A program made the position numbers and the translations under genes. This document shows positions 948-17,880 of a stretch of DNA of 45,182 bases, in pieces (the first letter of the stretch is position 1; the number at the start of each line of letters is the position of its first letter). Under the pieces are notes generated by a model that was not told the origin of the DNA, made no database searches, and saw nothing but the letters and a program-made list of their open reading frames with translations. This DNA comes from Clostridiales bacterium UBA1779 (lineage in GTDB: Bacteria; Bacillota; Clostridia; Oscillospirales; CAG-272): contig DCGL01000116.1 of assembly GCA_002314565.1 (NCBI GenBank), forward strand, positions 1 to 45,182, given 5' to 3'.

Positions 948-965
948 AAACCGTGAGGAAGAAAG

Positions 966-1430: not shown

Positions 1431-1449
1431 GAAAGAAAAGGAGCCCGAT

Positions 1450-1773
1450 ATGGCAAAGGATTACAAACCGATTAAAAACCCCGTGCTGAGATTCTTCCTT
1501 GACAGTGCCGGTGTGTTCGAGCTTATTTGCAAAATCATTCTTGCAGTGATAATCATCCCATACGGAAGCCTTTTCGTAAACGGCCTGATTTTTGACAAAC
1601 TTCTGAAGGTTGTTGACGGAAACGATTTCTGGGTTATCGCCATTGTGGCCACACTCGTCATACTGTTCATACTCGGAAACGTTGCCGCAGTCTACGCCAT
1701 CGTAAGATATTCAATCGGGATCGGACGAAAGAGAATAAGTACCCCGAAGACTAAGGAGAGTGAAGAAAAGTGA
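1450..1773 (+). CDS. Small integral membrane protein (two predicted TM helices)
   Basis: This is a 107-aa ORF with an SD (AAAGGAG) 7 nt upstream of the ATG at 1450. It has two hydrophobic spans (ICKIILAVIIIPYGSLFVNGLIF and FWVIAIVATLVILFILGNVAAVYAIV). Its stop overlaps the start of the next gene as GTGA. Confidence 0.65.
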   Translation: MAKDYKPIKNPVLRFFLDSAGVFELICKIILAVIIIPYGSLFVNGLIFDKLLKVVDGNDFWVIAIVATLVILFILGNVAAVYAIVRYSIGIGRKRISTPKTKESEEK

Positions 1774-4576: not shown

Positions 4577-4752
4577 AAAAATCAGCCCAAAGAAAAAAAC
4601 ATCTCAGTAACTCAGAAACGACAAACACAATAATTCATCAAGAGACACCAAAGAAGCAACGCCTTCGGTTTCACAATAAGTTATCAATATTCCGAAGCCT
4701 GCCGGCAAAGGAAAAGATAAAAATAAAAAGTTTCAAAACAAGGAGAAACAAA

Positions 4753-5853
4753 ATGAAGCACCTCAAATCAAAACTGATTTCCGCTATCGCAATGCTTGCA
4801 GTAGCCGCTGTAATGATGACATCCGCCACTTACGCTTGGATGACCATTTCAACCAACCCCGAAATCTCTGATATCAAGGCAAACGTTGTCGCCAACGGAA
4901 ACTTTGAAATCGCCCTCGACGCCGGTTCAATGACCAAGCCCGGCGCTTCAACAACCAGCGATGCCGGCAAGAACGAAACCTGGGGTAATCTCGTAGACCT
5001 CAAGGGCGCATTCCAGACCTCTTCCGGTGGAATCGCAACACTTCAGCTCAAGCCCGTAGGAATCATCAGCTCTGCCATCACCGTTCTTGACAGCTCCGGA
5101 ATCGCCAACAGCTCAGGCGTTGTAGTATTCCAGTATCCCGAATACGGTAAAGACGGTAGAATTTCCAAGCTCACAAACCTCAACAGAGTCCGTGCAACAG
5201 ACGGTGCTGCCGACAACTTCAAGGATCTCGGCGGTGTATATTTCTACACAACATCCAGCGCAGTTAAGTCTTCCGGTATTTCCGACATCAGCTCCAACGA
5301 AGTTTATGCCGTAGAAATCGACTACTGGCTCAGAACCAATGCCGAAAATTCTTCCGCCATCACACTGGTAGCTCCTTCCTCCGGAATCAGCTCCAGCTCA
5401 ACACCCGACTCCGGTGTTTCAAGATCTGAAGACGCTGCCGATACATACGCCGGCGAAAACGGTCTCGGCTCATTCATCAGCATTGATACAGTTACAATCC
5501 TTCTTGCCGATACAACCGATAAGAAAGTATACGAAGCTGTTCCTTCTGCCATCGCTTCTTCATCCTTCTACTCCCTCGCTCTGAAGGAAGTTGAATGGAA
5601 AGAATCTACCAAGACATACGAAGTCAAGTCCGGCGGAATCGAATACATCAAGCTCGACAAGGACGAAGCCAAGCTTATCAGAATGTACATCTTCATGGAC
5701 GGTGCCGTTCTTGAAAACTCCGATGCAAAGCTTACTATGACTGAGTTCACAATGAACGTACAGTTCACAAGCAACAAGGAACTCACCGCTATGGACGTTC
5801 CCATGACTGATTACGACAGAGCCTCTGCCATCTCTTCCTCCGCTGCATGGTAA
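4753..5853 (+). CDS. Group-A SipW-cognate-type secreted protein 2; candidate major fibre subunit (TasA/camelysin-like candidate)
   Basis: I prefer the ATG at 4753 because a strong SD (CAAGGAGAAAC) lies 6-8 nt upstream. The leader is MKHLKSKLISAIAMLAVAAVMMTSATYA followed by WMTISTNPEISDIK. The protein is Ser/Thr/Ala-rich, and by eye its codons are more C-ending than those of its neighbours. Two hairpins follow the gene. The ORF track start at 4573 (ATGA overlap with the upstream stop) would add 60 basic residues, encoded by A-rich sequence that looks intergenic. Confidence 0.8.
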   Translation: MKHLKSKLISAIAMLAVAAVMMTSATYAWMTISTNPEISDIKANVVANGNFEIALDAGSMTKPGASTTSDAGKNETWGNLVDLKGAFQTSSGGIATLQLKPVGIISSAITVLDSSGIANSSGVVVFQYPEYGKDGRISKLTNLNRVRATDGAADNFKDLGGVYFYTTSSAVKSSGISDISSNEVYAVEIDYWLRTNAENSSAITLVAPSSGISSSSTPDSGVSRSEDAADTYAGENGLGSFISIDTVTILLADTTDKKVYEAVPSAIASSSFYSLALKEVEWKESTKTYEVKSGGIEYIKLDKDEAKLIRMYIFMDGAVLENSDAKLTMTEFTMNVQFTSNKELTAMDVPMTDYDRASAISSSAAW

Positions 5854-5874
5854 TCAATCACTGAAAAACAATAG

Positions 5875-5896
5875 TCCGCCGCTTAATTGCGGCGGA
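5875..5896 (+). terminator. GC-rich hairpin downstream of the candidate major subunit gene (possible partial terminator)
   Basis: TCCGCCGC (5875-5882) pairs with GCGGCGGA (5889-5896) around the 6-nt loop TTAATT. The hairpin starts 22 nt after the stop at 5853. No clear U-run follows. Confidence 0.35.
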
Positions 5897-5916
5897 TAAA
5901 TGCGCAGACACATTTC

Positions 5917-5956
5917 GTTCACAATCTGTTTTGTGCGTACAGAACAGATTGTGAAC
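5917..5956 (+). terminator. Long perfect inverted repeat or hairpin in the 5854-5980 intergenic region
   Basis: GTTCACAATCTGTT (5917-5930) is exactly complementary to AACAGATTGTGAAC (5943-5956). The stem can extend by UUGU/ACAG (one G-U pair), leaving the loop GCGU. No U-run follows, so this could be an RNA stabiliser or attenuator, or a protein-binding palindrome. Confidence 0.35.
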
Positions 5957-5980
5957 TGACCGAAAAGCCATGACATTTCT

Positions 5981-7018
5981 ATGAAAGGAGCAATCGATTT
6001 GAGCAAGCAGCTGAAAACGGTAATATCACTGGTTCTCACTGTGGCGGCGCTGCTGTCACTGGTCGGTGCCACGTATGCGTGGCTGACGATGTCGGATGCT
6101 CCTATGGTTTCAGACCTGGCTCTGTATCTCGTTTCAGACAACGATATGGCTTTTCTTGTGGCTCCCGATGTGGACGGAGAGCCGGGCGAATTCGGCCTGA
6201 TTTTGGATCTTTCCACAAGCTCACAAAGAGGGACGCTCTTAAAACCGGTCACCTTCTCGGCATCTCAGTTTGCCTTTCTTCTGCCCGAATACGCGCTTGA
6301 CGGCAGAATCAAAGCGGGCTCACCGATATACCTTGAAACGACCATAGATACACCGTCCATCTATTCACCTTATATCTCCCCGGCGGCAGACTCGGAGATA
6401 TTGGGTGAGTACGTATACAAGACAACGTTCTGGGTTAGAGCCGACGCGGTTCCGGTTGACGTTTCCCTTGCGTCGACGTTCACAAATACAGACGGGGTCG
6501 AAGTTACCGGAAGTTATCTTGTCGGCGAACCGATTTGGAATGATACTTCATATTATCACGAAAACAGCGGAAGCGGAGCCGAATATGCAATCAGAATCGG
6601 ACTTTACTTCTTCGGAACCGAAGAAGACCCCGATGACCACCGCTTCGTCATCATTGAACCCAACGCGGACGGCGGAAATGCCGTTCTGTACGACAGCAAA
6701 TACTTTACACAGAGCGTCGACGGCGAAGGAATGGACCTTGCAGCCGGCGACAAACGCGTTACTCTGATTCAGCAATACAGTTCAGGATGGAAAGAGAAGG
6801 ATCCCATTCTGAAGGGCGAGGTTGATTACACTTCAGGGAAGGTAATCGGCGACGACTACATAATCACAATACAGCAGGCAGAGACCAGAAAAGTTGAACT
6901 TTACGTCTGGCTCGAAGGAAACGATGCGGACTGTCTGAATACGATTTCTTCAGGCCGTATCATCGGAAACCTTGTGTTTGGTGCCGATATTTCCAATCTG
7001 CCTCTCAATCCCGAATAA
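5981..7018 (+). CDS. Group-A SipW-cognate-type secreted protein 3 (TasA/camelysin-like candidate)
   Basis: The leader is LKTVISLVLTVAALLSLVGATYA followed by WLTMSDAPMVSDL. The C-terminal motif is LYVWLEGNDADCLN (6899-6940). The EPNAD motif is shared with 7222-8838. The start is either ATG 5981 or in-frame TTG 5999, which sits 8 nt after AAAGGAG (5984-5990). Confidence 0.8.
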   Translation: MKGAIDLSKQLKTVISLVLTVAALLSLVGATYAWLTMSDAPMVSDLALYLVSDNDMAFLVAPDVDGEPGEFGLILDLSTSSQRGTLLKPVTFSASQFAFLLPEYALDGRIKAGSPIYLETTIDTPSIYSPYISPAADSEILGEYVYKTTFWVRADAVPVDVSLASTFTNTDGVEVTGSYLVGEPIWNDTSYYHENSGSGAEYAIRIGLYFFGTEEDPDDHRFVIIEPNADGGNAVLYDSKYFTQSVDGEGMDLAAGDKRVTLIQQYSSGWKEKDPILKGEVDYTSGKVIGDDYIITIQQAETRKVELYVWLEGNDADCLNTISSGRIIGNLVFGADISNLPLNPE

Positions 7019-7099
7019 ATCACGCCTCAGGCGGATTCATTCAGGATTTCGGAAAAGCACCTTGCAAAGCAAAACAAAAATCATTTAAAACGGAAAACA

Positions 7100-7115
7100 A
7101 CCCGCTTCTGCGGGT
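7100..7115 (+). terminator. Short GC hairpin in the intergenic region (weak terminator candidate)
   Basis: ACCCGC (7100-7105) pairs with GCGGGT (7110-7115) around the loop TTCT. No U-run follows. Confidence 0.2.
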
Positions 7116-7221
7116 GACAATAAATTACCCGGGAAATTAGCCGGGAAAGCCAATCAATCAAAAGCAAGTCAATTGCAGAGTTCCGGCGGGAAATCTGAAA
7201 GAAACGGAAGGGGGGACGGGG

Positions 7222-8838
7222 ATGCCGAAAAACGCAAAGTCAAAGCTGATAGCGGCCGGAATTACGCTGTTGCTTTCATTTCTGCTGATGACCGGTACGA
7301 CCCTGGCTTGGTATACGATTTCAGTCAACCCCGAAATTTCCGGAATCACAATGTCGATAGCGGCTTTTGAAACCATACTGATAGCACGTGACGACAAGAA
7401 TGTTGAGGATCCTCACGACCTTGACTTTAAAGAAACGGTTGACATCAGTGACATAATGGTGTATTACAACGATCTGACCCCCGTTTCAACCGTCAACCTT
7501 CAGCAATGGTTCATTCCGACCTATGCCAGGGACGGAAAACCCAACGAGCCTGATAAGTTCATTATGGACGACAAGCTTGAATATGCCAACCGTCTGATGG
7601 TGGAAACGGATTCCGGCGGAATAGTATATCAGGTAACAACGAACCCCGAAAGCTCCTCTTCAATCACAATCTCATCGGCAATACCGCTGACTGGGCTTGA
7701 ATTGCTTGAAGCGGAAAAGAAAGGTTATTACGTCTATACGGACGTCTGGCTCAAGTCAACCGCCAAAGACGGTTCCGACGTAAGACTTTCATTTCCTCAG
7801 TATTCCATTGACAAAGCAAGCGCAGCCAACGAAATGGGCGGATTCTTCGGAACGTACGTTCTTCCTCAGATTTCACTCACGGTAGCTGACGACCACAGCG
7901 AATTTATCAAGTCCGTCAGCCGTAACGCCGAAACCTCTCTTCGGATAGGATTTCAGATATACGGGAACGGAATCGGATCCGGAGCAACGGACTATTACAT
8001 ATTTGAACCCAATGCAGACAGACACAGCGCAGATAACAAGCCCGACGGTGACGGAGAATACGTTGTTGGTTATGACGTGAATTCCTCGGCATATTCCGGT
8101 ACCTCAGCCTATGTCGACGGAGTATACATTCCGACTCAGCCGATAGGCTACGATTTCACCAAAGACAATGTTGAACCCATACCTCAGTATGATGAAAACG
8201 GATACCCGATATACCTCTATACCAAGGTCACAGATCCCGACTTGTTTGAAACTGTGACGTCCGGCCTGACCTTCTACATAGAGAAGGCGGGGACATATGA
8301 CGGATACACAATGGTTTCAAGAGCTCAGGCAAAAACCAAATACAGTGAAGGAACCGACGTGTTTACCAGAGAGCAAAAAACCGAAATGGGGAACGTACAT
8401 CACGCGTTTGCAATGGATCTTGACCCTGACCGTCTTATAGTCCAGATGGCAGGAGCCTGGAACACGGAAGCAGCGGGAACCCGTGAAAAGCTGAGAACAC
8501 AGACTTCGCTTAACTCAACGGATATCCTGAATTTCGGAAGCTTCGTTAACACAGGCCTGCTTTACGGCAAGCTGGCCGCCCTCAAAGAAGCAGGCGGAAG
8601 CGGAAAATTCTGCACGGTAAACGCAAGCAGCTATTATTCCGTATGTACTGCCCTGGAACCCGAAACGGACGAGCATTTCGTCATTTCCGGGGATAATACA
8701 TCACAAGTGCTTCTGCATCTCAATTACGATGAACCCGTAAAGGTCCGGCTCTTCTTCTGGGTCGAAGGACAGGATGCGGATTGCTGGAATGACATTGCCT
8801 CAGGCAGTTTCAGAGTAAATATAGAATTTGCCGGTTAA
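7222..8838 (+). CDS. Group-A SipW-cognate-type secreted protein 4 (largest paralog, TasA/camelysin-like candidate)
   Basis: An SD (GAAGGGGGG) lies upstream. The leader is KSKLIAAGITLLLSFLLMTGTTLA followed by WYTISVNPEISGI, close to the TISTNPEISDI of 4753-5853. The C-terminal motif is LFFWVEGQDADCWN (8750-8791). It also has YYIFEPNADRHS. Confidence 0.8.
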   Translation: MPKNAKSKLIAAGITLLLSFLLMTGTTLAWYTISVNPEISGITMSIAAFETILIARDDKNVEDPHDLDFKETVDISDIMVYYNDLTPVSTVNLQQWFIPTYARDGKPNEPDKFIMDDKLEYANRLMVETDSGGIVYQVTTNPESSSSITISSAIPLTGLELLEAEKKGYYVYTDVWLKSTAKDGSDVRLSFPQYSIDKASAANEMGGFFGTYVLPQISLTVADDHSEFIKSVSRNAETSLRIGFQIYGNGIGSGATDYYIFEPNADRHSADNKPDGDGEYVVGYDVNSSAYSGTSAYVDGVYIPTQPIGYDFTKDNVEPIPQYDENGYPIYLYTKVTDPDLFETVTSGLTFYIEKAGTYDGYTMVSRAQAKTKYSEGTDVFTREQKTEMGNVHHAFAMDLDPDRLIVQMAGAWNTEAAGTREKLRTQTSLNSTDILNFGSFVNTGLLYGKLAALKEAGGSGKFCTVNASSYYSVCTALEPETDEHFVISGDNTSQVLLHLNYDEPVKVRLFFWVEGQDADCWNDIASGSFRVNIEFAG

Positions 8839-8915: not shown

Positions 8916-9641
8916 ATGAACACAACAACCGAAAAAAACAAGAACAGTAAATCCGGAAAAGTGGGCAACATCATCGTTGACGTCATCCTTGTGCTTGCAA
9001 TTGCATTCTTTGCCGTCGTCGGATATTCTGCCTTTACGGCTCAGACCGGCGAGAGCGTTCCGAATTTCCTCGGCTTGAATATGTCAAAGGTACTGACAAA
9101 TTCAATGGAGCCCGAATTCTCAGCAGGCGATATGATTTTCAGCCGTACCGTAAAAGACGCTTCAAAGCTAAAGGTAGGGGACGTCATTTCATTCTGGACG
9201 GTAATCAACGGTGAAAAGGTTATCAATACCCATAGAATCGTTGAAGTTCTTGACGGAGGAACATTCAGATCTTTCACCACAAAGGGTGACGCGAATCCTG
9301 TAAACGATACGCTGACCGTTCATGAGAACAGCGTTATCGGTAAATACAGCTTCCATATCAGCGGCCTGGGCACTGCATTTGACTATCTGCAGACCTCGCA
9401 GGGCTTTCTGATTGTCATCGTTATCCCGGTGGCTGTGTTCTTCCTCTGGCAATTGATTCAGTTCTTCAGAGCGCTCTTTGCATATCAGGCCGAAAAAGTA
9501 AAACTTGCGTATGCGGCAGAGCACGGAATCAGAGTACCGACAGAAGACGAAGAAGGCTCGGGAAAAAGCGGCTCTGAACAAAAAAACGCTGTCGCAGACG
9601 GGGACGGAAATCCCGGAAAAGACACGGAAAAAACTGACTGA
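8916..9641 (+). CDS. sipW: Signal peptidase I, archaeal/ER type (SipW-like), with C-terminal charged tail
   Basis: It has an N-terminal TM (IIVDVILVLAIAFFAVVGY), the catalytic Ser box LTNSMEPEF, the His box NTHRIVEV, TTKGDANPVND, and a second TM (FLIVIVIPVAVFFLWQLIQFF). An acidic tail of about 57 aa follows. SD: GAAAGGTG. Confidence 0.85.
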   Translation: MNTTTEKNKNSKSGKVGNIIVDVILVLAIAFFAVVGYSAFTAQTGESVPNFLGLNMSKVLTNSMEPEFSAGDMIFSRTVKDASKLKVGDVISFWTVINGEKVINTHRIVEVLDGGTFRSFTTKGDANPVNDTLTVHENSVIGKYSFHISGLGTAFDYLQTSQGFLIVIVIPVAVFFLWQLIQFFRALFAYQAEKVKLAYAAEHGIRVPTEDEEGSGKSGSEQKNAVADGDGNPGKDTEKTD

Positions 9642-9846: not shown

Positions 9847-11478
9847 ATGGGCGGTTTTCTGAATTACTTTTACCAGGATTTCGGTTTGATTCTTAAATCA
9901 TTCTGGCAGATATTCGTGGATATTTTCAATTTCCTGAATACTCTGCTGAACTTCCCGGCAAGAATGAGAACAATACAGGCCTATTCCGAGGAATTTGACC
10001 TGCCGAGCTGGATACTCGTCGCAGTGGTCAATCTGCTGCTGATTGCACTGATAGTATTCGTAATTTTCCTGATTGCAAAGGGCGTTGCAAAATTGCTGAA
10101 ATTCCGCGCTCCTGCAAAGGAAAACGAGGAGCTGAAGGCAGAACTGGCAAAACTGAAGAGAGATATGTTCAAGCTCAGCTATGAGAAGGACAAGATTCTG
10201 GCGATGAAGATATCCCAGATGGGCTTTGTCCCCGAAGATGAGCTGCTCAGCATTGAGAACGAAGCAACCCGTGTTCTCGGTGAGGACGGAACTGTCAGAA
10301 ATGCAGAAAGCGAAGCCGAGGGTGAAGAAGAGAAAGCGGATCACGTTGACCTCGGAAACAGAAATACCTTCGACGGTCCTCCCATCAATCCGAGCGAAAG
10401 CCGATTCTTCAGACTTACGACTGTTGATAACTATTATAAGACCAATTTCCAGCCTCCTGTATACGATGATGCAATCACGCTTCCGGAATTCTGCGACAGA
10501 TACCGCAATTTTGCAAGTTCAAGACTGCGTCTGTTCTATGATATCAGTACCTTGAGATTCTTCGTTGCATCACTGGCTGCAACAAGACTTATCATTCTTC
10601 AGGGTATTTCCGGTACAGGTAAAACCTCACTGCCGTATTCATTCGGTAAGTACCTGATGCACGACACCACAATCTGCGCCGTACAGCCTGCGTGGCGTGA
10701 CCGTACCGAGCTTTTCGGTTACTTCAACGAATTTACCAAGATGTTCAACGAAACGGACTTCTTACGTGCGGTTTATGAAGCAAATATGTTTGCCGATCCC
10801 CACGTAATCGTTCTCGATGAAATGAACATCGCCCGAGTTGAGTATTATTTCGCCGAAATGCTTTCAGTCCTCGAAATGCCGAGACCTGAAGAATGGCTTG
10901 TCGATATCGTAACCACAACCTGGGACAATGACCCCTGCCTCATTTCAGGCGGTAAAATCCACGTAAACAAGAACACATGGTTCGTCGGAACCATCAACAA
11001 CGATGACTCGACCTTCGCCGTCGCCGATAAGGTTTACGACCGTGCAATTCCTATCGACCTTGACTCAAAGGCCGCAGCCTTCGCAGCTCCCGACACAGAA
11101 CCCGTACATATCACAGCCGACCATCTGTGCGAGATGTTCACAGAAGGCCAGAAGCTTTATCCTCTTTCCGAGGACAATATGAAGAAACTCGACGAAATGG
11201 ATCTTTACGTTATCAAGCATTTCCGTCTTGCGTTCGGAAACCGTATTATGAGACAGCTCAGACTCTTCGTTCCTGCTTATGTTGCCTGCGGTGGAACGGA
11301 AATCGATGCGCTTGACTTTATAGTAGCCAAGAAGATTCTTCGTAAGTTTGAATCACTCAATATGGGCTTTATAAAGGATGAACTTCACAAGTTCGTTCTT
11401 TACCTCGATAAATCCTTCGGAAAACAGAACTTCCAGATTTGCAAGGAATACCTCAACCGTATGCAGAAAATGTCATAA
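9847..11478 (+). CDS. Membrane-anchored McrB-family AAA+ NTPase
   Basis: The N-terminus has hydrophobic segments (FGLILKSFWQIFVDIFNFLNTLL and WILVAVVNLLLIALIVFVIFLIA) followed by a short coiled coil (ENEELKAELAKLKRDMFKL). Walker A is GISGTGKTS. The Walker B region with McrB-type continuation is VIVLDEMNIARVEYYFAEMLSVLE, and FVGTINNDDSTFAVADKVYDRA matches McrB GTMNTADRS...D.A..RR. I prefer ATG 9847 (GGTGGAG 6 nt upstream) over the track's GTG 9835. Confidence 0.8.
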   Translation: MGGFLNYFYQDFGLILKSFWQIFVDIFNFLNTLLNFPARMRTIQAYSEEFDLPSWILVAVVNLLLIALIVFVIFLIAKGVAKLLKFRAPAKENEELKAELAKLKRDMFKLSYEKDKILAMKISQMGFVPEDELLSIENEATRVLGEDGTVRNAESEAEGEEEKADHVDLGNRNTFDGPPINPSESRFFRLTTVDNYYKTNFQPPVYDDAITLPEFCDRYRNFASSRLRLFYDISTLRFFVASLAATRLIILQGISGTGKTSLPYSFGKYLMHDTTICAVQPAWRDRTELFGYFNEFTKMFNETDFLRAVYEANMFADPHVIVLDEMNIARVEYYFAEMLSVLEMPRPEEWLVDIVTTTWDNDPCLISGGKIHVNKNTWFVGTINNDDSTFAVADKVYDRAIPIDLDSKAAAFAAPDTEPVHITADHLCEMFTEGQKLYPLSEDNMKKLDEMDLYVIKHFRLAFGNRIMRQLRLFVPAYVACGGTEIDALDFIVAKKILRKFESLNMGFIKDELHKFVLYLDKSFGKQNFQICKEYLNRMQKMS

Positions 11479-11499
11479 ACGGATCAGGAGTACAGAAAA

Positions 11500-13953
11500 G
11501 TGGCAGAAAAGAAGAAATCCGGCAAAAAGGAAAAGAAGAACGAGAAAATCGGTCTTATCGATCCCTTTTACAAAAAATACGTCAGCAGCGTAATAAAAAC
11601 TCTCAGCTCGGACGAATACTACAAGTATTTTTTGCAGGTCGTCAAGTCTGGAAAAAATGAATATAAGTTTTCAAACCGTCAGGTTGAGAAAACAGTTGAC
11701 GAAACGTGGGTAAATGCCGTTGAGTCAGTTATCAAGCCCATGCAGGAAATTATCAACAACCCCCGAAACTTCATTGTCCGTGAGCAGATTATCGTAAACG
11801 TTGCTCTGGCAAAAAAAGTTGAAGCGGAGACGATACGTCATCTTTGCAGCCACGGTGATATGATTGATGAGGTCAACGGCGATAATGTAAGACCGAACCG
11901 TCTTCTTGAAATCACAAAAGAAGACTCAATCAACACCTATGAAAACCGTTTTGTCTACACTCTGCTTGAAATGGCATGGGAATTCGTTGATATGAGATAC
12001 GAGGCAATTTTCGCTTCAATGGGTGAAGAATTCGGTTCTCACCTGAATATCAAGAGCGACAGCTTCGGTTATCTTGAAACCGTCAAGGCAGAGATGGATA
12101 TCAAAATCCAGCAGAACGAGGAACAGCTGTCTGCCGATGCGAAAAGCGAGGATATCTTTTCACGAATTTCAAGAATTCACAGAAACCTCGCAGCCTTCCG
12201 CTCAACCCCATACGCAAAGCAGATGTCGAAGTACGGCAAAGTTAAGGCTCCTATCGTTAAAACGAACGCCATCAAGAAAAACCCGAACTTCAAAGCCTGT
12301 CATAAGCTCTGGGACTTTATTATTGCATACAATGACGTAGGATACAAAATTGAAGTCAGAGAGCAGTCAAACGAGCTCGATGACGTCTTCCTCAAGGATA
12401 TGTACAACTCAATCCTGTACAATTATATGATTCTCAAACATCACCTTGAAGAAGAAAGAGACAGACTGATTGATTATTCAAAACCCGTAAAGAAAAAAGA
12501 AACGGTACCGAAATTCATCAATCAGGTAATTGAAGAACCCGTCGAAGACTACAATCTTCCGGATGTTGAAGTTAAGAGAGTCCTTATTGAGGAAGTGACA
12601 AAGGCAGACCTTATGAAGCTTGAAGAAGAGGAACGCCGCCGTCTCGTTGCCGAAAAAGAAAAGGAACTTCAGGAACGCAAAAAGGAAGAAGAACGCCTGC
12701 GCAAGCTTGCCGAAGCAGCAAGACGCGCCGAAGAGGAACGCCTCGAAAAAGAAAGAATCAAAGAAGAAAAACGACTCGAGCGCGAGAGAAGAGCGGAAGC
12801 CCTTGCAGCCGAGAGGGAAGCATACAGAAAAGCCGAAGAGGCAGAGGACTTCCTTACCGGTCTGACTGCCGCGCTTGAACTTGAAGAGAAAAACCGCGAA
12901 AAATACGTTGCAAAGCTTGCCGAAGCAAAGCGCCTTGCGGCTATTAGAGCCGAAAAAGAAGAAAAAGAGCGCATAGCAGCCGAAAAGAAGGAAGCTGCCA
13001 GACTTACTGCTCTTGAAAAAGCGGAACAGGACAGAATCAAGGCGGAACGTAAAGCAGAAGAAGACCGTAAGGCAGCAGAGCTTGCCGAGGCACAGAAGAA
13101 AGCCGACGAGGCAAGAATCATTTCAGAACAGGCCGAAGCCGAGAGACTTATCGCAGAGAAACGCGATGAACTTGATAAGCTGGAAGCCGAGATGAAGATA
13201 ATTGCCGAAGAAGCCGCAAAGAAAAAAGCGGAAGCGGAAGCTGCAGAGGAAAAACTCAATGCAGCACGTGCCGAAGCCGAGAAGCTTGCAGGCGAAGCCG
13301 CCGAAAAGGCAGAAGAAATCAGGCGTGAAACCGAAGGCTTCAAAGCCGAAGCCAAAGAAAAGCTTGAAAGTTCGATGGCTGCAAGAAATGCCGCCGAAAG
13401 CGAGCTTGCAGAAGCCGAAAAGACTGCAGAGGAACATAACAAAGCCAGACTCAATGCACAAAATGCAGCCAAGAAAGCAAAGGAAAAGGCCGAAGCTGAA
13501 ATACTTGCAAAAGAGAATGCCGACAAAGAGGCCGAAATTGCAGCAAAGAAGGCTGAAGAAGCAAGACTTGAAGCTGAGCGCCTGAGCACAGAAAGCAGCG
13601 ATGACCTTGAAAAGGCCAAAGCTGAGCTTGAAGACGCAAAGAAACGCGCCGAAGTCCTGCGTCAGGAAGCAAGACTTGCCGGGCTTGAAAAGGCAGCTGC
13701 ACTTAAAGCCGCAGCCGAAAAGGCAGCGGGAATCCGCAAACTTGACGAAGACAGCAGCAATATAGAAAAACAGAACAAAAAGCAGAAGAAAGCGGACAAG
13801 CTCAAAGAAAAGAGAGACCGCAAGCGTGCCATGGAAGCCGAGCAGCGTGAAAAACAGCTGCAGCGTACCCAGGAAGCCAAAGAAACACGCCAGAGAGAGC
13901 AGGAAGCTCTGATGGCTGCCGCACGCGAAGCTGCCAAAAAAGGCAAAAGATAA
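11500..13953 (+). CDS. McrC/DUF2357-like N-terminal domain protein with about 450-aa E/K/R/A-rich coiled-coil or single-alpha-helix tail; no nuclease motif seen
   Basis: The GTG start lies 9 nt after AGGAG and 21 nt after the AAA+ gene stop. The N-terminal 330 aa or so contain TYENRFVYTLLEMAWEF, which resembles the (T/D)xENRF motif of McrC/DUF2357-type partners of McrB. From about 12590 onward the sequence is continuous charged heptad-like, for example EEEERRRLVAEKEKELQERKKEEERLRKLAEAARRAEEERLEKERIKEEKRLERERRAEA. I could not find a PD-(D/E)xK pattern. Confidence 0.7.
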   Translation: MAEKKKSGKKEKKNEKIGLIDPFYKKYVSSVIKTLSSDEYYKYFLQVVKSGKNEYKFSNRQVEKTVDETWVNAVESVIKPMQEIINNPRNFIVREQIIVNVALAKKVEAETIRHLCSHGDMIDEVNGDNVRPNRLLEITKEDSINTYENRFVYTLLEMAWEFVDMRYEAIFASMGEEFGSHLNIKSDSFGYLETVKAEMDIKIQQNEEQLSADAKSEDIFSRISRIHRNLAAFRSTPYAKQMSKYGKVKAPIVKTNAIKKNPNFKACHKLWDFIIAYNDVGYKIEVREQSNELDDVFLKDMYNSILYNYMILKHHLEEERDRLIDYSKPVKKKETVPKFINQVIEEPVEDYNLPDVEVKRVLIEEVTKADLMKLEEEERRRLVAEKEKELQERKKEEERLRKLAEAARRAEEERLEKERIKEEKRLERERRAEALAAEREAYRKAEEAEDFLTGLTAALELEEKNREKYVAKLAEAKRLAAIRAEKEEKERIAAEKKEAARLTALEKAEQDRIKAERKAEEDRKAAELAEAQKKADEARIISEQAEAERLIAEKRDELDKLEAEMKIIAEEAAKKKAEAEAAEEKLNAARAEAEKLAGEAAEKAEEIRRETEGFKAEAKEKLESSMAARNAAESELAEAEKTAEEHNKARLNAQNAAKKAKEKAEAEILAKENADKEAEIAAKKAEEARLEAERLSTESSDDLEKAKAELEDAKKRAEVLRQEARLAGLEKAAALKAAAEKAAGIRKLDEDSSNIEKQNKKQKKADKLKEKRDRKRAMEAEQREKQLQRTQEAKETRQREQEALMAAAREAAKKGKR

Positions 13954-14156: not shown

Positions 14157-14984
14157 TTGAAACGCAGGACAGTCAAAAAAATAATATCGGCCGCAGTGAC
14201 TGTACTGCTTATATGCGCAACGGTGCTGTGCTTGTCCGCAATAATAGGAAGCTTGCTCAATGACGACCCTTCCGTTTTCGGATTCCGTGCATTTTACGTA
14301 CTCAGCGGAAGTATGGAGCCAACAATTCACGAAAGTGCTCTGGTGCTTGTAAAACGCTCGTCTGTCTATGAAATCGGTGACGTGATTACGTTCACGTCGA
14401 AGAATCCCGAAATATCCGGGGCTCCGAACACGCACAGAATCGTTGAGATTATTCAGAACGGAAAGAAAACGGAGTATATCACAAAGGGCGATGCAAATCC
14501 GACACCGGATGAAGAGCACGTTCTGGACTCCGAAATAATCGGACGTGTTGTATTCCATACCGGAGCCGTTGAATGGCTCGGAAGCTTTCTGGAATTTCTA
14601 ATGACAACCAAGGGATTTATGCTTATTGTGGTAATCCCGATTGTGGCAATCGTAATTTCCTGTCTCAGAGATTACGTCAAGGCTTACAAGGAAGCACTTC
14701 AGAAGGTACGCGAAGAGTATGAAAAACAATTGGCAGGGCAGTCTGCCAATGCTGAAAAAAACACGGATAATTTCAAAAACGAAAAAATCCCCGCAACAAC
14801 AGAAAACACTGAAGCTGCAGTCACAGAAATGCAGTATAATAACAAAAATACGGTCGGAAAACCCAAATCCGACACACAAGAAACCGACGCCCCGCAGTCT
14901 GAAGGAATGACGGGAAATAAAAAAGCCGATGGCAGAGAGGCCGGAAGCTCTGACGGAAAGGAATCGAACCATGAAGGACATTAA
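14157..14984 (+). CDS. sipW: Signal peptidase I, archaeal/ER type (SipW-like), with long C-terminal tail
   Basis: The start is TTG, 10 nt after GGAG. It has an N-terminal TM (IISAAVTVLLICATVLCLSAII), the Ser box VLSGSMEPTI, the His box NTHRIVEI, ITKGDANPTPDE, and a second TM (FMLIVVIPIVAIVISCL). A polar tail of about 107 aa follows. The 3' end overlaps the next gene by 14 nt. Confidence 0.85.
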   Translation: MKRRTVKKIISAAVTVLLICATVLCLSAIIGSLLNDDPSVFGFRAFYVLSGSMEPTIHESALVLVKRSSVYEIGDVITFTSKNPEISGAPNTHRIVEIIQNGKKTEYITKGDANPTPDEEHVLDSEIIGRVVFHTGAVEWLGSFLEFLMTTKGFMLIVVIPIVAIVISCLRDYVKAYKEALQKVREEYEKQLAGQSANAEKNTDNFKNEKIPATTENTEAAVTEMQYNNKNTVGKPKSDTQETDAPQSEGMTGNKKADGREAGSSDGKESNHEGH

Positions 14985-16266
14985 GAAAAGGGGACTTTTG
15001 ATGCTGATATCAGTTGTCCTGCTTCTTGGTATAGGAATATATATTACCTACGCATGGTACACCCGTATCACCGGTGTTTCCGCCATTGATTTCACTGCGG
15101 CAAGATGGGACTTCAACGCAAACTATCAGGCCGACAGTATCAAGGTCAACGTTTTCGAGTATGAATCGGTTTACGGAGGCAATATTGCGGCCCCCGGAAC
15201 AGCCGGAACGGTTAATCTGAAGCTCGGTGCCGAAGAGTCGGACGTTGACGTTGAATACATTCTGATGGTCGACCACGAAACGATGTCCGATGAGTTTCAG
15301 AAAAGAATATTCTTCTACTATACGGATGAAAACGGTGAGCAGGTTGAATTTGAATACGGGGTAAACGGTTTGTCCGGCGTTATCGCCGCCCGCAGCTCAT
15401 CAATTGTAGAGTTCAACTGGGAATGGGTCTACGATTATGACGGATACCTGGAAAAACTGGACAAAGAAAAATTTGTAGCTGCCTCAGGAATACTCAGAGT
15501 CCTGTATGACTCACCGATTGGAACGTTCACCACAATTGACGAATTCAAGGAATTGTACGAATATATCAGCAAGGATGCGGAAATTCTCAGTTCAGCACTC
15601 GTCAATCCGGGCTCCGGTGAGGACGGAACGTATTATCAGGTCCTGTCAAGCGCCGTATCGTTTCAAAGTCTGTGGAACAACAGACTGAGCGAGAGGGCAT
15701 TCAATGCTCTGCAGGTTATGGTAGGTATGACACCGGAAAGCCGCGCAATACTGTTTGCAAACGAAGCACAGTACGGAGGTTCAAGCAGCGCCATACTGAC
15801 ACTCGAAGAAATTGAAAAACTGAAGCCGTACAAAGATGCGAATGCGACCGATCCGAGTTGTCTTTATAATCTGTTTACTTCGAACTACGGCCCGGAAGGA
15901 GATTCGGCAACCGCAGATCTGAAAGAAAAATATGATATTATGCTGATTCTCAGAAGCTTTTCAAAGGCTCAGCGTGAATTGCTTTTTGCCAATTCGCAAT
16001 ATCTTGACAAGTGTTTCGGGCAGATAAATCTGGAAGTTGAAGGACAGAATTACAGCGATTCAATTGCCTATCTTGAGTATTACACAGCGGAACACGGATA
16101 TCTCACTCTTGAATCATTCTTTGAAGCGTATCTGTCTGAATATGAAGAATTTGACAGCTATGACAATAAAGTCGGGGCAAATCCGAAATATTATCAGTCT
16201 CAGATGACGGCAACGATTTACATTATCGGCACTCAGGTGAAACCTGAAGCCGTGGTCAATTCATAA
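14971..16266 (+). CDS. Group-B SipW-cognate-type secreted protein 5 (TasA/camelysin-like candidate with helical insert)
   Basis: I prefer ATG 14971 (AAAGGA about 8 nt upstream) over the track start at 14929. The leader is MKDIKKRGLLMLISVVLLLGIGIYITYA followed by WYTRITGVSAIDFTAARWDFNANY. The strand pattern IAAPGTAGTVNLKLGAEESDVDVEYILMV is typical of TasA/camelysin-like beta sandwiches. The C-terminal strand is MTATIYIIGTQV. Confidence 0.75.
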   Translation: MKDIKKRGLLMLISVVLLLGIGIYITYAWYTRITGVSAIDFTAARWDFNANYQADSIKVNVFEYESVYGGNIAAPGTAGTVNLKLGAEESDVDVEYILMVDHETMSDEFQKRIFFYYTDENGEQVEFEYGVNGLSGVIAARSSSIVEFNWEWVYDYDGYLEKLDKEKFVAASGILRVLYDSPIGTFTTIDEFKELYEYISKDAEILSSALVNPGSGEDGTYYQVLSSAVSFQSLWNNRLSERAFNALQVMVGMTPESRAILFANEAQYGGSSSAILTLEEIEKLKPYKDANATDPSCLYNLFTSNYGPEGDSATADLKEKYDIMLILRSFSKAQRELLFANSQYLDKCFGQINLEVEGQNYSDSIAYLEYYTAEHGYLTLESFFEAYLSEYEEFDSYDNKVGANPKYYQSQMTATIYIIGTQVKPEAVVNS

Positions 16267-16314: not shown

Positions 16315-17880
16315 ATGATAAACGGATACCGCAGATTCGAAAAAATCAGGCTCGTAATTGCCTGTGCGGCATTTTTGTGCGCTGTTGCCCTTCTTGTCTG
16401 CTACGCTGCCGTTTTTACCGTATCAAAATACAAAACCGAAATAGACGGATATACAAATTTTGAAATATCCTCATTCCATGCAATTCTTCTCGGCAATATG
16501 ACAAAAGAAGAAATAATGGAAACGTGGACCGATACGACCAAACAACTCACACTGTTCGGAGAGGAAGTATCGGTTGCCAATCTCTCTCCGGGAATGGAAT
16601 CCGCATGCATTCCGTTTTCCTTGTCGAACGGAACTTCCGTCGATGATATTTCGGGCATGGACTTTGAATTCACACTTCGCGTTCGCACGACAGGAAATAT
16701 TCCACTGACGTTCAGGCTTCTCTGGAAAGAAATCACCGAAATAAAGAATGCTTCCGGTCAGGTTATCGATACCGTTGAAACCGAGCATACTTACGTGACA
16801 AACGGTGAGTACTATCTCGAAGAAGGGGCGAAAGGCGATGCACCGAGATACATATACACTTTTGTTGAACAAAGGACGGACAACGGTATCACTTATACCG
16901 ACGATAATGAGCATTATTTCTATATGAGCGGCGGAACTCTCAGCGTTGAATCGTTTGAATTGCAGATGGACTGGCCTCTTGGAGTTGATGCCTACGGTGA
17001 TGATACAAACAGCTCGAAGTATATGAAAGAAGTTGACGTCATCGATATGCTTGCCATAATCAGCTCGAAAAACCGTTCCGAAACATATACCGGCTCATCA
17101 GGAACGCCGACATATTATTCTGACGGATATATTCTGGTTAAACGCGGAACAGGTAATTTCGGGTCCGAGACGGAGGGCGAAAGCTTTGTTCTTTCATTTG
17201 ATTTCAGAGCATTTGAAATTCAGAGCAGCGCGTCTGAATATACGGAATCTGATTATTCATTCGTTGTCGGAAACGGCAATGATATTTACAACGGCAGTGC
17301 AATATTAAATCCTACCACTTCTTCTTATACGAATTTCAAGCTTGAAATTGCCGTGCCGCTGACAGTGGATACACAAAGCAAGCAGGACAGTGTCAGAAGC
17401 TGTGCGATATACATTCAGGACGTTAATGACAGTAACGAAGACGGTGACAAAACCGATTATATTGAGATTACTTCAACCTCGATTTCGTACAGACTTTACG
17501 ATATAACCGACGATACATACGAAAGCTTTGAATCCAGAGCCGAGGCACTTGCTTATATCAATGATGCTGATTACGATTATGTGAAGTCAAATCTCAGAAT
17601 GTACAAGATTTACACACCTTCGGTGAACGACAATCAGGCACATTATTTTTCACTCAGTAATCTCGAAGCCGATGCTTCAATAAAGTATGACAGCCTGAAA
17701 TTCAAGATTCGTATGACGGGCAGCCCGATTACTTCCGTTACGGCGCTGGAAAACATTCCGAGAGTAGTTGTAACGGCATATTATGAAAATTCCGAAAGGG
17801 ATAACTCATCGCAGGGAACAACGGTTGATTCCGGTGCAATAGGATCCGGCGCGATTGATTCCGGTTCTGTAATCGGGTAA
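16315..17880 (+). CDS. Group-B SipW-cognate-type secreted protein 6 (divergent leader)
   Basis: An SD (GAAGGAGG) lies upstream. The leader is RRFEKIRLVIACAAFLCAVALLVCYA followed by AVFTVSKYKTEIDGYTNFEISSF. It also has LSPGMESACIPFSLSNGTSV. The C-terminus is a low-complexity Gly/Ser tail (SGAIGSGAIDSGSVIG). Confidence 0.7.
   Translation: MINGYRRFEKIRLVIACAAFLCAVALLVCYAAVFTVSKYKTEIDGYTNFEISSFHAILLGNMTKEEIMETWTDTTKQLTLFGEEVSVANLSPGMESACIPFSLSNGTSVDDISGMDFEFTLRVRTTGNIPLTFRLLWKEITEIKNASGQVIDTVETEHTYVTNGEYYLEEGAKGDAPRYIYTFVEQRTDNGITYTDDNEHYFYMSGGTLSVESFELQMDWPLGVDAYGDDTNSSKYMKEVDVIDMLAIISSKNRSETYTGSSGTPTYYSDGYILVKRGTGNFGSETEGESFVLSFDFRAFEIQSSASEYTESDYSFVVGNGNDIYNGSAILNPTTSSYTNFKLEIAVPLTVDTQSKQDSVRSCAIYIQDVNDSNEDGDKTDYIEITSTSISYRLYDITDDTYESFESRAEALAYINDADYDYVKSNLRMYKIYTPSVNDNQAHYFSLSNLEADASIKYDSLKFKIRMTGSPITSVTALENIPRVVVTAYYENSERDNSSQGTTVDSGAIGSGAIDSGSVIG

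Follow-up and report, generated by a model that had tools for sequence, protein, structure and literature searches.

The locus analyzed here raises the question of why a pair of genes resembling those for McrB and McrC should lie among genes for signal peptidases and surface proteins. We refer to the whole stretch of DNA analyzed (45,182 nucleotides of contig DCGL01000116.1, from Clostridiales bacterium UBA1779) as the window; all of the features located below are on its forward (+) strand. A preliminary description of this DNA offered two readings of the pair (9847–13953), either as an exapted McrBC-like module serving a fiber locus or as a defense module inserted into the operon, and held that either would be new.

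The membrane-anchored ATPase

The first gene of the pair (9847–11478) encodes a protein of 543 aa. Its ATG start codon at 9847 is preceded by GGAG and agrees with the public gene call, and because the protein has at least 8000 relatives in the databases, it is not a chance ORF. Both ORFs of the pair and the ATPase motifs exist as they had been described: GISGTGKTS at residues 253–261, VLDEMNIARVEYYFAEMLSVLE at residues 322–343, and GTINNDDSTFAVADKVYDRA at residues 381–400. In an alignment of 37 relatives (57–79% identity to the window protein), nearly all positions of these three stretches are invariant. The AAA+ core and lid (residues 228–543; 10528–11475) were delimited by invariant columns and by gapless alignments, and contain Walker A (10603–10629), the Walker B residues D324/E325 (within 10804–10827), and an N-N-D-D (NxD+D) sensor motif (10996–11007); all three motifs and an aligned arginine, R399, are invariant in the 37 relatives.

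The earlier assignment of this protein to the McrB family was upheld by sequence and profile searches. McrB is its only sequence match in the PDB (with a marginal score, E = 1e-3), AAA_5 was matched in all 37 family members scanned, and the PADLOC model PDC-M26A matches at 1.9e-38. A structure model retrieved the AAA+ rings of MCM, RavA, McrB, and BrxL in Foldseek, with E values of 7.7e-5 for RavA and 2e-4 for McrB, both of which are AAA_5 proteins. The core aligns without gaps to E. coli McrB, and the NNDD motif aligns without gaps to the GTANHDETT of annotated plasmid AAA-ATPase and DUF2357 pairs. Judged by its sequence, the protein belongs to the McrB branch of AAA+ NTPases and keeps its catalytic motifs intact, and its sensor is the NxD-plus-acidic motif typical of the CoCoNuT-like branch. 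It shares with E. coli McrBC (PDB 6hz4, 6ut6, 7vsr) the AAA+ core, Walker A, a DE(I/M)N Walker B, an Asn/Asp sensor motif, the aligned arginine, and a partner gene immediately 3', but it is membrane anchored, it lacks the N-terminal DNA-binding domain of E. coli McrB, and its sequence score against that protein is marginal (E about 1e-3). With the CoCoNuTs (CnuB/CnuC), it shares the NxD-[D/E] sensor motif in a gapless alignment, and its AAA+ core is 34–38% identical to those of plasmid pairs of CoCoNuT-like architecture. Whereas CoCoNuT GTPases carry long coiled coils, the window protein has only a membrane anchor and a stalk of ~35 residues.

The N-terminal membrane region (9847–10098) was defined by hydropathy, the structure model, and invariant residues, and consists of conserved amphipathic helices (residues 2–49) followed by a transmembrane helix (residues 52–84); the predicted helices span residues 2–34, 36–49, and 52–84. 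Where the preliminary description allowed one or two hydrophobic segments, we found one strong segment (residues 49–87, Kyte-Doolittle maximum 3.35), after which comes a helix at residues 91–124. Q10, D11, G13, N35, R39, and Y46 are invariant among the 37 relatives. Residues 84–125 form a K/R-rich stretch with 11 K/R, which by the positive-inside rule suggests that the C-terminal side is cytoplasmic. The stalk helix (residues 91–124 of the model; 10117–10218) corresponds to a segment described in the literature as FtsB/DivIC-like. It contains the invariant residues YEKDK (112–116), L118, and M120, and shows a periodicity peak at 3.5–3.6 residues; weak Pfam DivIC matches were obtained in 8 of the 37 relatives (best E 0.033). 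An acidic linker follows (residues 126–170; 10222–10356), which is gappy and variable in length in the alignment and predicted to be disordered (pLDDT below 50). Between it and the AAA+ core lies a class-specific motif, RNT..P..SRFFRLTxVDNYYK (residues 171–207; 10357–10467), in which R172, N173, P178, R186, F187, R189, L190, T191, D194, N195, and K198 are invariant among the 37 relatives, and of which the alignment contains no counterpart in the CoCoNuT-like plasmid relatives. A membrane anchor and a short stalk stand in for the usual DNA-binding domain of McrB.

A DUF2357 partner with a charged tail

The partner gene (11500–13953) encodes 817 aa. It begins with GTG at 11500, 8 nt downstream of an AGGAG sequence, and the gap from the ATPase stop codon is 21 nt, as had been noted, together with a TYENRF-type motif that we place at residues 146–151. 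The proposed kinship with McrC proved well founded. Once the tail was removed, the protein matched Pfam DUF2357 (E 4.8e-9, 36.3 bits, cut-off 23.3), as did 38 of 42 partner homologs, and hhalign against an annotated DUF2357 protein gave a probability of 96.7% (E 4.6e-10). The N-terminal domain (residues 1–345; 11500–12534) has relatives in 2187 clusters at 50% identity (E ≤ 0.001), so the partner is not a chance ORF either. Within the T-Y-E-N-R-F motif, all sequences have Y147, E148, and N149, and 41 of 42 have R150; P88, R89, T255, and N256 are also invariant, and position 105 is K or R throughout. The PR, VRP, YENR, and TN..NP.Y...LW motifs are shared with the DUF2357 partners of CoCoNuT-like pairs.

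The reported lack of a nuclease was borne out. The partner has no nuclease match in Pfam, NCBIfam, PADLOC, or the PDB, and a PD-(D/E)xK nuclease was found in it by neither profile, motif, nor fold search; a moderate-confidence model of the N-terminal domain (mean pLDDT 73) gave nothing at E < 0.6 against the PDB in Foldseek. Strings resembling D..(D/E)xK occur only at residues 38–56 and 187–215, and none of them uses invariant acidic or lysine residues. The DUF2357 alignment reaches approximately residue 283 and the charged composition is documented from residue 372, which leaves fewer than 90 residues, too small a space for a nuclease domain, although a degenerate nuclease remnant may persist in residues 165–345. 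No nuclease domain was found among all 16 genes of the window. In this the partner differs from E. coli McrC, which has a PD-(D/E)xK nuclease, and the pair differs from the CoCoNuTs, in which a nuclease (PD-(D/E)xK, HEPN, or other) is always present in tandem, often with a helicase; the window locus yielded neither.

The C-terminal tail (residues 372–817 and the stop codon; 12613–13953) was recognized by its composition: its 446 aa comprise 23.5% E, 22.6% A, 15.2% K, and 10.5% R, with no proline. It had been described as about 450 aa of charged coiled coil. The length and charge of the helix stand, but a simple heptad-register test scored no better than shuffled sequence (z = 0.7) and gave no support for a canonical coiled coil. 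We found no DNA tandem repeats in the tail. Partner homologs have tails of anything between 0 and about 650 aa, some lacking the tail entirely. The last 30 residues are strongly basic in the window protein, and 38 of 74 homologs reach a net charge of at least +5 there; about half lack the basic end. The partner thus keeps the DUF2357 domain of McrC, and beyond that domain has just a long charged helix of variable length.

The surrounding cluster and its conservation

Upstream of the pair, a block at 363–3284 encodes a TetR regulator (363–947), two small proteins, and an HD-GYP-type HD_5 protein (1770–3284). It is followed by a conserved signal-anchored protein, g3332 (3332–4576), recognized from its sequence, alignment, and homologs in related loci, with a basic cytoplasmic tail, a transmembrane segment, a YAW motif, and a C-terminal domain that ends in VVLWVEGYDPEC (family consensus WLEGxDPDC). 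Sequences and alignment then identify three candidate secreted subunits (4573–5853, 5981–7018, and 7222–8838; block 4573–8838), in each of which T-[YL]-A-W comes after a hydrophobic signal. Searches for relatives of these candidates in Pfam, in the PDB, and among named proteins found none, and the candidates have no detectable sequence similarity to TasA, Peptidase_M73, or known pilins; the suggested relationship of the neighboring proteins to TasA was not confirmed by sequence searches.

Three SipW/archaeal-type signal peptidase I paralogs flank the pair, all matched by TIGR02228. The first (8916–9641) scores above the cut-off (E 4.9e-27), with SMEP and THR motifs visible in its sequence; the second lies at 14157–14984 (E 3.1e-29); and in the third (18040–19680; E 4.2e-14, 52.7 bits against a cut-off of 51.85) the peptidase domain is fused to a C-terminal domain of ~350 aa. 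Two further signal-bearing proteins are encoded at 14929–16266 (with TYAWYT) and 16315–17880. The last gene (19804–45182) is open at the window end and specifies a giant surface protein, with >8459 codons in the window and 10,425 aa in the source contig; MBG_2 matches it in 8 stretches (E 2.7e-106), with weaker CopC-like and Big_13 matches. The Bacillus tapA-sipW-tasA biofilm fiber operon likewise has a dedicated archaeal/ER-type signal peptidase gene beside genes for secreted proteins whose signals are followed by an aromatic-containing motif (PMC10269814). The window locus differs from it in having three peptidase paralogs, an adhesin of >10,000 aa, and subunit candidates without detectable TasA/Peptidase_M73 similarity.

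We examined synteny in species genomes at 82 related loci; Lachnospiraceae bacterium 10-1 and Ruminococcus sp. FC2018 are examples of cultured carriers. A partner gene was recognized in 81 of the loci, and in 77 it lay within 150 nt on the same strand. SipW-type signal peptidases were present in 79; two of the three SipW-free loci are contigs under 3.4 kb. A g3332 homolog was found in 73; when the search was reversed and anchored on g3332, 20 of the 25 informative loci yielded the McrB/McrC pair. Very large surface proteins occur often, and the identical operon order recurs with proteins of 9,482, 10,425, and 12,418 aa. Conservation within the cluster is highest for the ATPase gene, with a median identity of 49% as against 30–35% for its neighbors in 67 shared loci. 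No ATPase match in plasmid and phage collections covered 80% or more of the protein. The pair thus belongs to the conserved core of a gut-Clostridia cluster that encodes surface proteins processed by signal peptidases together with a giant adhesin, and it is probably not a defense insertion. Because synteny ties the pair to the cluster in both search directions, the exaptation reading of the preliminary description is strongly favored, and the co-occurrence of SipW and partner genes tells against an inserted defense module.

The expectation that either reading would be new did not survive, because the architecture has been published. Bell et al. (2024; eLife 13:RP94800, PMC11090510) named a CoCoPALM class in one paragraph and deferred its analysis; in their description, an NxD McrB GTPase is joined to a segment resembling FtsB, with a transmembrane part and a coiled coil, both proteins carry coiled coils, and the genes are linked to those for signal peptidases. 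The window pair shares with this class the NxD-type McrB GTPase with an N-terminal transmembrane and helical (FtsB-like) segment, the DUF2357 McrC homolog with a long helical extension, adjoining signal-peptidase-family genes, and a Bacillota host, and shows no difference of kind. We found no experimental study of any CoCoPALM member in the literature. Our analysis adds to the class a conserved gene set (g3332, SipW paralogs, T-Y-A-W signal proteins, HD-GYP, and the giant MBG-repeat adhesin), an operon with no detectable nuclease and a partner tail that is variable or dispensable, and association statistics in both directions.

Possible roles of the pair

We consider it probable that this CoCoPALM module is a McrBC derivative without a detectable nuclease that has become fixed in a SipW-dependent fiber/adhesin cluster of gut Clostridia; its most likely role would be that of an NTP-driven assembly or export module for the locus. 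The existence of a fiber is suggested by the SipW-type signals, the three SipW paralogs, and the published label. To our knowledge, the Bacillus tapA-sipW-tasA operon contains no ATPase and the TasA/SipW system needs none, so a motor is not an obvious requirement. Against exaptation, moreover, the nearest relatives are predicted defense systems, and the PADLOC candidate matches strongly.

A less probable explanation is that the pair acts as a GTPase switch for regulation or positioning, whose FtsB-like anchor would bring it to a particular place in the membrane, for instance the septum or a pole, and whose nucleotide state and long partner helix would control where or when the products of the locus are deployed, possibly in concert with the c-di-GMP-type HD-GYP protein encoded upstream. 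The weak DivIC/FtsB matches and the FtsB-like domain described in the literature (PMC11090510) point this way, as do an HD-domain (HD-GYP) homolog upstream in 32 of the 82 loci and EAL matches recorded in relatives; the widely varying tail would be expected of a spacer or ruler. The very strong constraint seen throughout the AAA+ catalytic motifs and in the activating DUF2357 domain is in keeping with a functioning hydrolase ring, though still compatible with a switch. It is unlikely that the ring and its partner act as a MoxR/RavA-type chaperone, maturing or inserting a difficult client (such as the >10,000 aa adhesin or the membrane peptidases) instead of working as a McrBC-like translocase. 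MoxR-type systems (RavA-ViaA and relatives) share the AAA_5 fold, a hexameric ring, and an obligatory neighboring partner, and by fold RavA scores as well as McrB. As far as is known, every MoxR protein acts together with a dedicated partner whose gene adjoins its own. That partner is a VWA protein, however, whereas the window partner has DUF2357; sequence searches pick out McrB and not MoxR, and both the NxD motif and the closest relatives are of McrB type.

We regard as more unlikely still a membrane-associated anti-phage or abortive-infection module that travels with the surface-protein locus. Homology to McrBC and CoCoNuT-like systems and the PDC-M26A match would suit such a module, and the closest annotated relatives adjoin helicase-like genes on plasmids and on one unverified phage-labeled contig. 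The context of the CoCoNuTs is defense, though, and that of the window pair is secretion. Against a defense module, no effector or nuclease was found in the pair or operon, the pair keeps its place between SipW genes in at least 80 species, the ATPase is unusually conserved for a defense gene, full-length copies are absent from the plasmid and phage collections, and the partner N-terminal domain matches no PADLOC model. Very improbable, finally, is a module that still handles nucleic acid, for example by exporting extracellular DNA or tethering it to matrix fibers. It would draw on McrBC ancestry for translocase activity and on the basic end of the partner, but that end is far from universal and the tail is missing in some homologs, the membrane anchor replaces the DNA-binding domain of McrB, and the operon has no DNA-related gene.

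For an assembly or export module, E. coli McrBC suggests how the pair might work. The DUF2357 domain of McrC plugs into the McrB ring and activates it. By inference from that system, which would supply ring formation, nucleotide specificity, finger contact, and substrate alike, six ATPase subunits would form a ring beneath the cytoplasmic face of the membrane, and a finger of the partner would enter the ring and switch on NTP hydrolysis. A candidate for this finger is a low-confidence loop at partner residues 96–105 and its flanks, which include invariant R89 as well as position 105, where the residue is always basic. The energy would be spent on protein, not nucleic acid, in the export, membrane extraction, polymerization, or anchoring of the SipW-processed subunits and the giant adhesin, and the long helix of the partner may serve as a spacer or scaffold.

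The ATPase gene and the membrane anchor of its product

The pair comprises two long ORFs on the + strand, and the motifs and two-ORF layout reported for it in the preliminary description were all found in place. The first ORF, which encodes the McrB-like ATPase, runs from 9835 or 9847 to 11478; the start is the ATG at 9847, which has a GGAG upstream and is also the start in the public call for an identical protein, giving a product of 543 aa. The partner ORF (11500-13953, +) begins with a GTG 21 nt past the ATPase stop codon and has an AGGAG 8 nt upstream. This 21 nt gap had been likened to the position of McrC after McrB, and close spacing proved to be general. In 82 related loci (80 fetched after species had been scanned through a single genome each, which gave at least 568 species with a relative, and two from protein look-ups), the N-terminal domain of the partner was present in 81, and it was on the same strand as the ATPase and within 150 nt of it in 77. 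A scan for promoters and terminators around the pair gave background levels.

The Walker A (GISGTGKTS, residues 253-261) and Walker B (VLDEMN, with D324 and E325) motifs of the ATPase are invariant among 37 relatives and align to GPPGVGKT and IIDEIN of E. coli McrB. N384-N385-D386-D387 is likewise invariant; a gap-free alignment pairs it with MNTAD in E. coli McrB and with N-H-D-E in CoCoNuT-like proteins, the branch that is marked by NxD and an acidic residue directly after it (Bell et al., 2024; eLife 13:RP94800, PMC11090510). Because the CoCoNuT-like stretch GTANHDETT aligns gap-free over GTINNDDST of the window protein, the ATPase has an NxD followed by an acidic residue. Its N-N-D-D reads as NxD plus a second Asp, and NxxD could also be read from this sequence alone. 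Among relatives that are 57-79% identical, G253-S261, D324-A336, G381-A400 and D398/R399 are invariant and M338 is nearly so. Since these motifs are intact and invariant in the relatives, the ATPase is almost certainly active as an enzyme, judging from its sequence.

A sequence search of the PDB with the ATPase matched only E. coli McrB (E = 1e-3, residues 233-405), with both Walker motifs (DE(M/I)N in Walker B), the Asn/Asp motif and an arginine all in register. The AAA_5 score of the window protein (18.1 bits) is just under the 22-bit cut-off, and AAA_5 was matched by all 37 relatives scanned (best E 8.3e-6). McrB is the top NCBIfam match (E 7e-4, far under the model cut-off), and the PADLOC candidate model PDC-M26A matched with an E value of 1.9e-38. 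Taken by sequence, the ATPase is thus closest to McrB. The monomer model (mean pLDDT 70.5) matches the AAA+ rings of MCM, RavA, McrB and BrxL with E values of ~1e-4; the predicted fold confirms the AAA+ clade, within which Foldseek did not single out McrB from MCM, RavA and BrxL.

The AAA+ core with its lid occupies residues 228-543. Upstream of it lie conserved amphipathic helices (residues 2-49), a single strong hydrophobic segment (residues 49-87, hydropathy maximum 3.35; helix 52-84 in the model), a K/R-rich stretch and a further helix (residues 91-124). The transmembrane helix and helix 91-124 are both conserved, and YEKDK (112-116), L118 and M120 of the latter are invariant. The preliminary description envisaged one or two hydrophobic segments followed by a short coiled coil: one strong segment and the helix at 91-124 were found, and homology of this region to FtsB/DivIC was seen only weakly (matches in eight of 37 relatives, best E 0.033). 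Residues 84-125 contain 11 K/R, from which, together with the need of an NTPase for cytoplasmic nucleotide, we infer that the catalytic domain is cytoplasmic. An acidic linker of variable length (residues 126-170), which is predicted to be disordered, leads to a strongly conserved motif, RNT..P..SRFFRLTxVDNYYK (residues 171-207; 10357-10467, +), directly before the AAA+ core. Our searches with the ATPase gave no match to a DNA-binding domain, and its N terminus is made up of membrane anchor, stalk and acidic linker. The RNT..P..SRFFRLTxVDNYYK motif was not found in the CoCoNuT-like relatives compared; it may be a class-specific element that binds a client or the partner and replaces the DNA-binding domain of McrB.

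The DUF2357 partner and its charged tail

At full length (817 aa) the partner matched nothing in Pfam, PADLOC or NCBIfam, because its charged tail masks the DUF2357 domain. Trimming the tail exposed the domain: residues 1-371 matched Pfam DUF2357 at 36.3 bits (cut-off 23.3; E 4.8e-9), and DUF2357 was matched by 38 of 42 partner homologs. A profile of the N-terminal domain aligned over 200 columns to a Deinococcus plasmid protein that is annotated as DUF2357 (hhalign probability 96.7%, E = 4.6e-10), and the two have in common the motifs (N/Q)PR, VRP, YENR and TN..(N/D)P.(F/Y)...LW. The T-Y-E-N-R-F sequence that had been singled out as an McrC/DUF2357 motif is thus a genuine hallmark, with YENR common to the plasmid protein and Y147, E148 and N149 invariant among the homologs. 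R89 does not vary either, and position 105 is K or R throughout; the two are within or flank a low-confidence loop of the model (residues 96-105). As a conserved Arg/Lys of McrC is reported to contact the signature Asp of McrB (Bell et al., 2024, citing Niu et al., 2020), we consider R89 and position 105 candidates for this contact. The best 150 representatives from an exhaustive search with the N-terminal domain belonged to the close family only, and nuclease-bearing outgroups were reached through the plasmid collection.

We found no PD-(D/E)xK nuclease in the partner, either as a profile match (Pfam, NCBIfam, PADLOC) or as a PDB match, and its homologs contain no invariant D...(D/E)xK. Sequence and profile searches of the PDB returned only coiled-coil noise. 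Foldseek comparison of the monomer model with the PDB, which addressed the proposal that a structure might reveal a PD-(D/E)xK core, detected neither a nuclease nor McrC (best E 0.6); the finger domain is extended and the partner model is of moderate confidence, so this result is uninformative on similarity to McrC. Past residue 214 the model is mostly helical, with one strand only. As the DUF2357 alignment reaches to around residue 283 and the charged composition was established for the stretch from residue 372 onwards, there is no room in the partner for a nuclease domain of ~150 aa, although a degenerate remnant of one is conceivable.

The tail (residues 372-817) is E/A/K/R-rich and proline-free, and no tandem DNA repeats were found in it. 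The preliminary description of a nuclease-less coiled-coil protein is upheld in that no nuclease is detectable; as to the coiled coil, a crude heptad test did not tell the tail from shuffled sequences (z = 0.7), which means that it could be a weak coiled coil or a single helix of the ER/K type. The length of the partner varies from 369 to 1026 aa among 74 complete homologs, some of which are tail-less. Such variants were noted at loci L067 and L072 (both from "Bacilli" MAGs), L032 and L073: some of the partners are without any charged tail (369 aa), and others end in a short non-charged segment (e.g., ...GIYYYRE and ...GIYFCGE), which may be a small extra domain. A basic patch at the C terminus was rejected as a conserved feature, being present in 38 of 74 homologs only. 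An AT-skew peak of 0.45 at 12-14 kb coincides with the region that encodes the tail. A 316-aa S/A/F/L-rich antisense ORF (12669-13619, -) that overlaps the tail is not a gene; it arises from the richness of the coding strand in GAA, GCA and AAA.

The operon and its conservation

The pair sits in a block of co-directional genes on the + strand that extends from a TetR regulator to a giant ORF. The TetR gene (363-947, +) heads the operon, with two small proteins in the upstream block. A 107-aa protein with two transmembrane segments (1450-1773, +) is kept with the operon in the closest related loci (L001 and L005), and it is followed by an HD_5 protein of the HD-GYP, c-di-GMP phosphodiesterase, type (1770-3284, +). 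In relatives (L001 and L002) the HD protein has EAL matches or there is a separate EAL protein, which hints that the operon is under c-di-GMP control, as for biofilm loci.

Next come a conserved signal-anchored protein (3332-4576, +), which we call g3332, and three candidate subunits (4573-5853, 5981-7018 and 7222-8838, +), in each of which T-[YL]-A-W comes directly after a hydrophobic signal. One SipW-type signal peptidase (TIGR02228) is encoded directly before the pair (8916-9641, +) and another directly after it (14157-14984, +). Two more signal-bearing proteins, including that at 14929-16266 (+), separate the second peptidase from a third (18040-19680, +), the peptidase domain of which is fused to an extracellular part of ~350 aa. 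The three paralogs are all TIGR02228 peptidases of the archaeal/ER type, and each keeps the serine motif SM(E/Q)P and the histidine motif TH(R/K). In the 14929-16266 protein, as in g3332 and the candidate subunits, the signal is followed by T/I-Y/L-A-W. A C-terminal W-[LV]-E-G-x-D-x-(D/E)-C is common to the candidate subunits and g3332 (two families aligned), and the 3332-4576 and 4573-5853 proteins have long basic cytoplasmic N-terminal tails ahead of the membrane segment. None of these five proteins is annotated or has a Pfam, PDB or named relative, and only the type of signal resembles that of SipW substrates. Searches of Pfam, NCBIfam and PDB profiles found no similarity of the candidate subunits to TasA or Peptidase_M73, and all attempts to identify them by sequence or profile as TasA-like proteins were negative.

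The giant ORF (19804-45182, +) runs off the end of the window after more than 8459 codons; the public call on its source, a 61.7-kb metagenome contig (JGI 3300001598), makes it 10,425 aa long. Its N terminus is a signal peptide, and it matches MBG_2 in eight stretches (E 2.7e-106); a CopC-like match is weaker, a Big_13 match is under the Pfam cut-off, and nothing in Pfam matched within the first 4200 aa. The corresponding proteins of homologous operons are 9,482 and 12,418 aa long.

Most of the related genomes are MAGs of Clostridia, and a few come from isolates. SipW-like genes, whose co-occurrence with the pair the preliminary description had proposed as a check, are present in 79 of the 82 loci, and two of the three exceptions are contigs shorter than 3.4 kb. 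Homologs of g3332 were present in 73 loci, subunit-like genes in 62, an upstream HD-domain protein in 32 and ORFs of at least 1000 aa in 36. In the reverse direction, we anchored the analysis on the g3332 family in metagenome contigs with at least 6 kb downstream (25 loci) and found the ATPase in 20, the partner in 19 and SipW in 20; huge subunit genes take up the flank in two of the five exceptions. Among the genes compared in 67 loci the ATPase is the best conserved, with a median identity to the window protein of 49%, followed by 35% for the partner N-terminal domain, 35% for SipW and 30% for g3332. Plasmid and phage collections gave matches to the AAA+ core only (at most 38% identity), none of which covered 80% or more of the ATPase. 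The linkage of the pair to SipW peptidases and their likely substrates is obligate, and the pattern of conservation and linkage marks the pair as a core part of a machine rather than a mobile cassette for defence.

Class and possible function of the pair

The best annotated matches outside this group are pairs on Deinococcus and Rhodoferax plasmids, in which an "AAA family ATPase" of ~800 aa is followed by a "DUF2357 domain-containing protein"; upstream of each pair lie genes for a large AAA-domain protein and for one of ~490 aa. These pairs probably have the CoCoNuT-like layout of Bell et al. (2024). A similar arrangement of four genes was seen in a human faecal sequence labelled "UNVERIFIED: Bacteriophage sp." (L087; MT835511.1, 3702-8244), in which two large ORFs come first, an 824-aa McrB-like and a 689-aa DUF2357-like protein are encoded after them, and no SipW gene was found.

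The CoCoPALM class has a GTPase fused to an FtsB-like transmembrane/coiled-coil domain; it was named, and deferred to a later publication, by Bell et al. (2024), who described coiled coils on both proteins as "usually" present. Both proteins of the pair carry long helices, predicted or by composition, and the pair fits the published description, clearly so in the signal-peptidase genes, two paralogs of which flank it, and less clearly in the FtsB-like and coiled-coil segments. It is very probably a CoCoPALM module. With neither a tandem nuclease nor a long coiled coil on the GTPase, it differs from the CoCoNuTs, and it is not a canonical McrBC type IV restriction system, because the DNA-binding domain of McrB and the nuclease are both missing. 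Searches of the literature library found no follow-up on CoCoPALM and nothing further on PDC-M26 or on SipW loci in these taxa. The class is thus already named, bioinformatically defined and experimentally untouched, and the window pair adds a member; the expectation that either of the two functions first proposed for the pair would be new does not hold in the face of that publication. Its interest is accordingly higher for experimentalists, as a widespread and testable exaptation, than as a discovery.

The explanation that we favour, as the likelier account overall, is that the pair is a CoCoPALM-type motor that works on proteins of the fibre/adhesin locus; such an exaptation had been one of two options raised earlier, and the locus counts in both directions favour it. 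By analogy with E. coli McrBC, the ATPase would form a hexameric ring into which a finger of the partner inserts to stimulate hydrolysis, and the helix of the partner might act as a spacer or scaffold. The genomic context suggests that the ring could export proteins, extract signal-anchored precursors, or polymerise or anchor a fibre and the giant adhesin; whether the pair has a part in assembly is evenly poised. A more ambitious form of this idea, which we regard as less likely than not, is that the pair is the cytoplasmic engine of an unrecognised Gram-positive surface-fibre machine, in which an McrBC-derived ring tethered under the membrane would cooperate with dedicated SipW peptidases to extract, polymerise or anchor signal-anchored subunits bearing adhesins of ~10,000 aa. 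The pair would then be equivalent to the PilB/TadA engines of type IV and Tad pili and of unrelated origin. It is widespread: Clostridia of gut and rumen carry it in the genomes of 568 species or more.

The pair might instead be a positioning or regulatory switch, which we think unlikely, or operate in the mode of a MoxR-like chaperone, which seems less likely still. The other option raised earlier, a defence module inserted into the operon, has in its favour the match to PDC-M26A, and defence-system finders may flag the ATPase on this account, although the context argues against defence: no nuclease domain was found among the 16 window proteins, in which HD_5 was the sole hydrolase found besides the SipW peptidases, and the distribution is that of a core part. 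We therefore consider defence very improbable, and handling of nucleic acid by the pair more improbable than any of these. On the motor reading, the motor of a restriction enzyme has clearly been turned to a task other than cutting nucleic acid, and should fibres or adhesins be assembled by its power, Gram-positive surface structures for attachment in the gut would have a new route of assembly. The class is open to direct tests, as its gene set is defined, candidates for the catalytic and finger residues are at hand, and carriers such as Lachnospiraceae bacterium 10-1 (L063) and Ruminococcus sp. FC2018 (L054) are in culture, and hundreds of abundant, poorly studied gut and rumen Clostridia carry the pair beside some of the largest bacterial proteins known.
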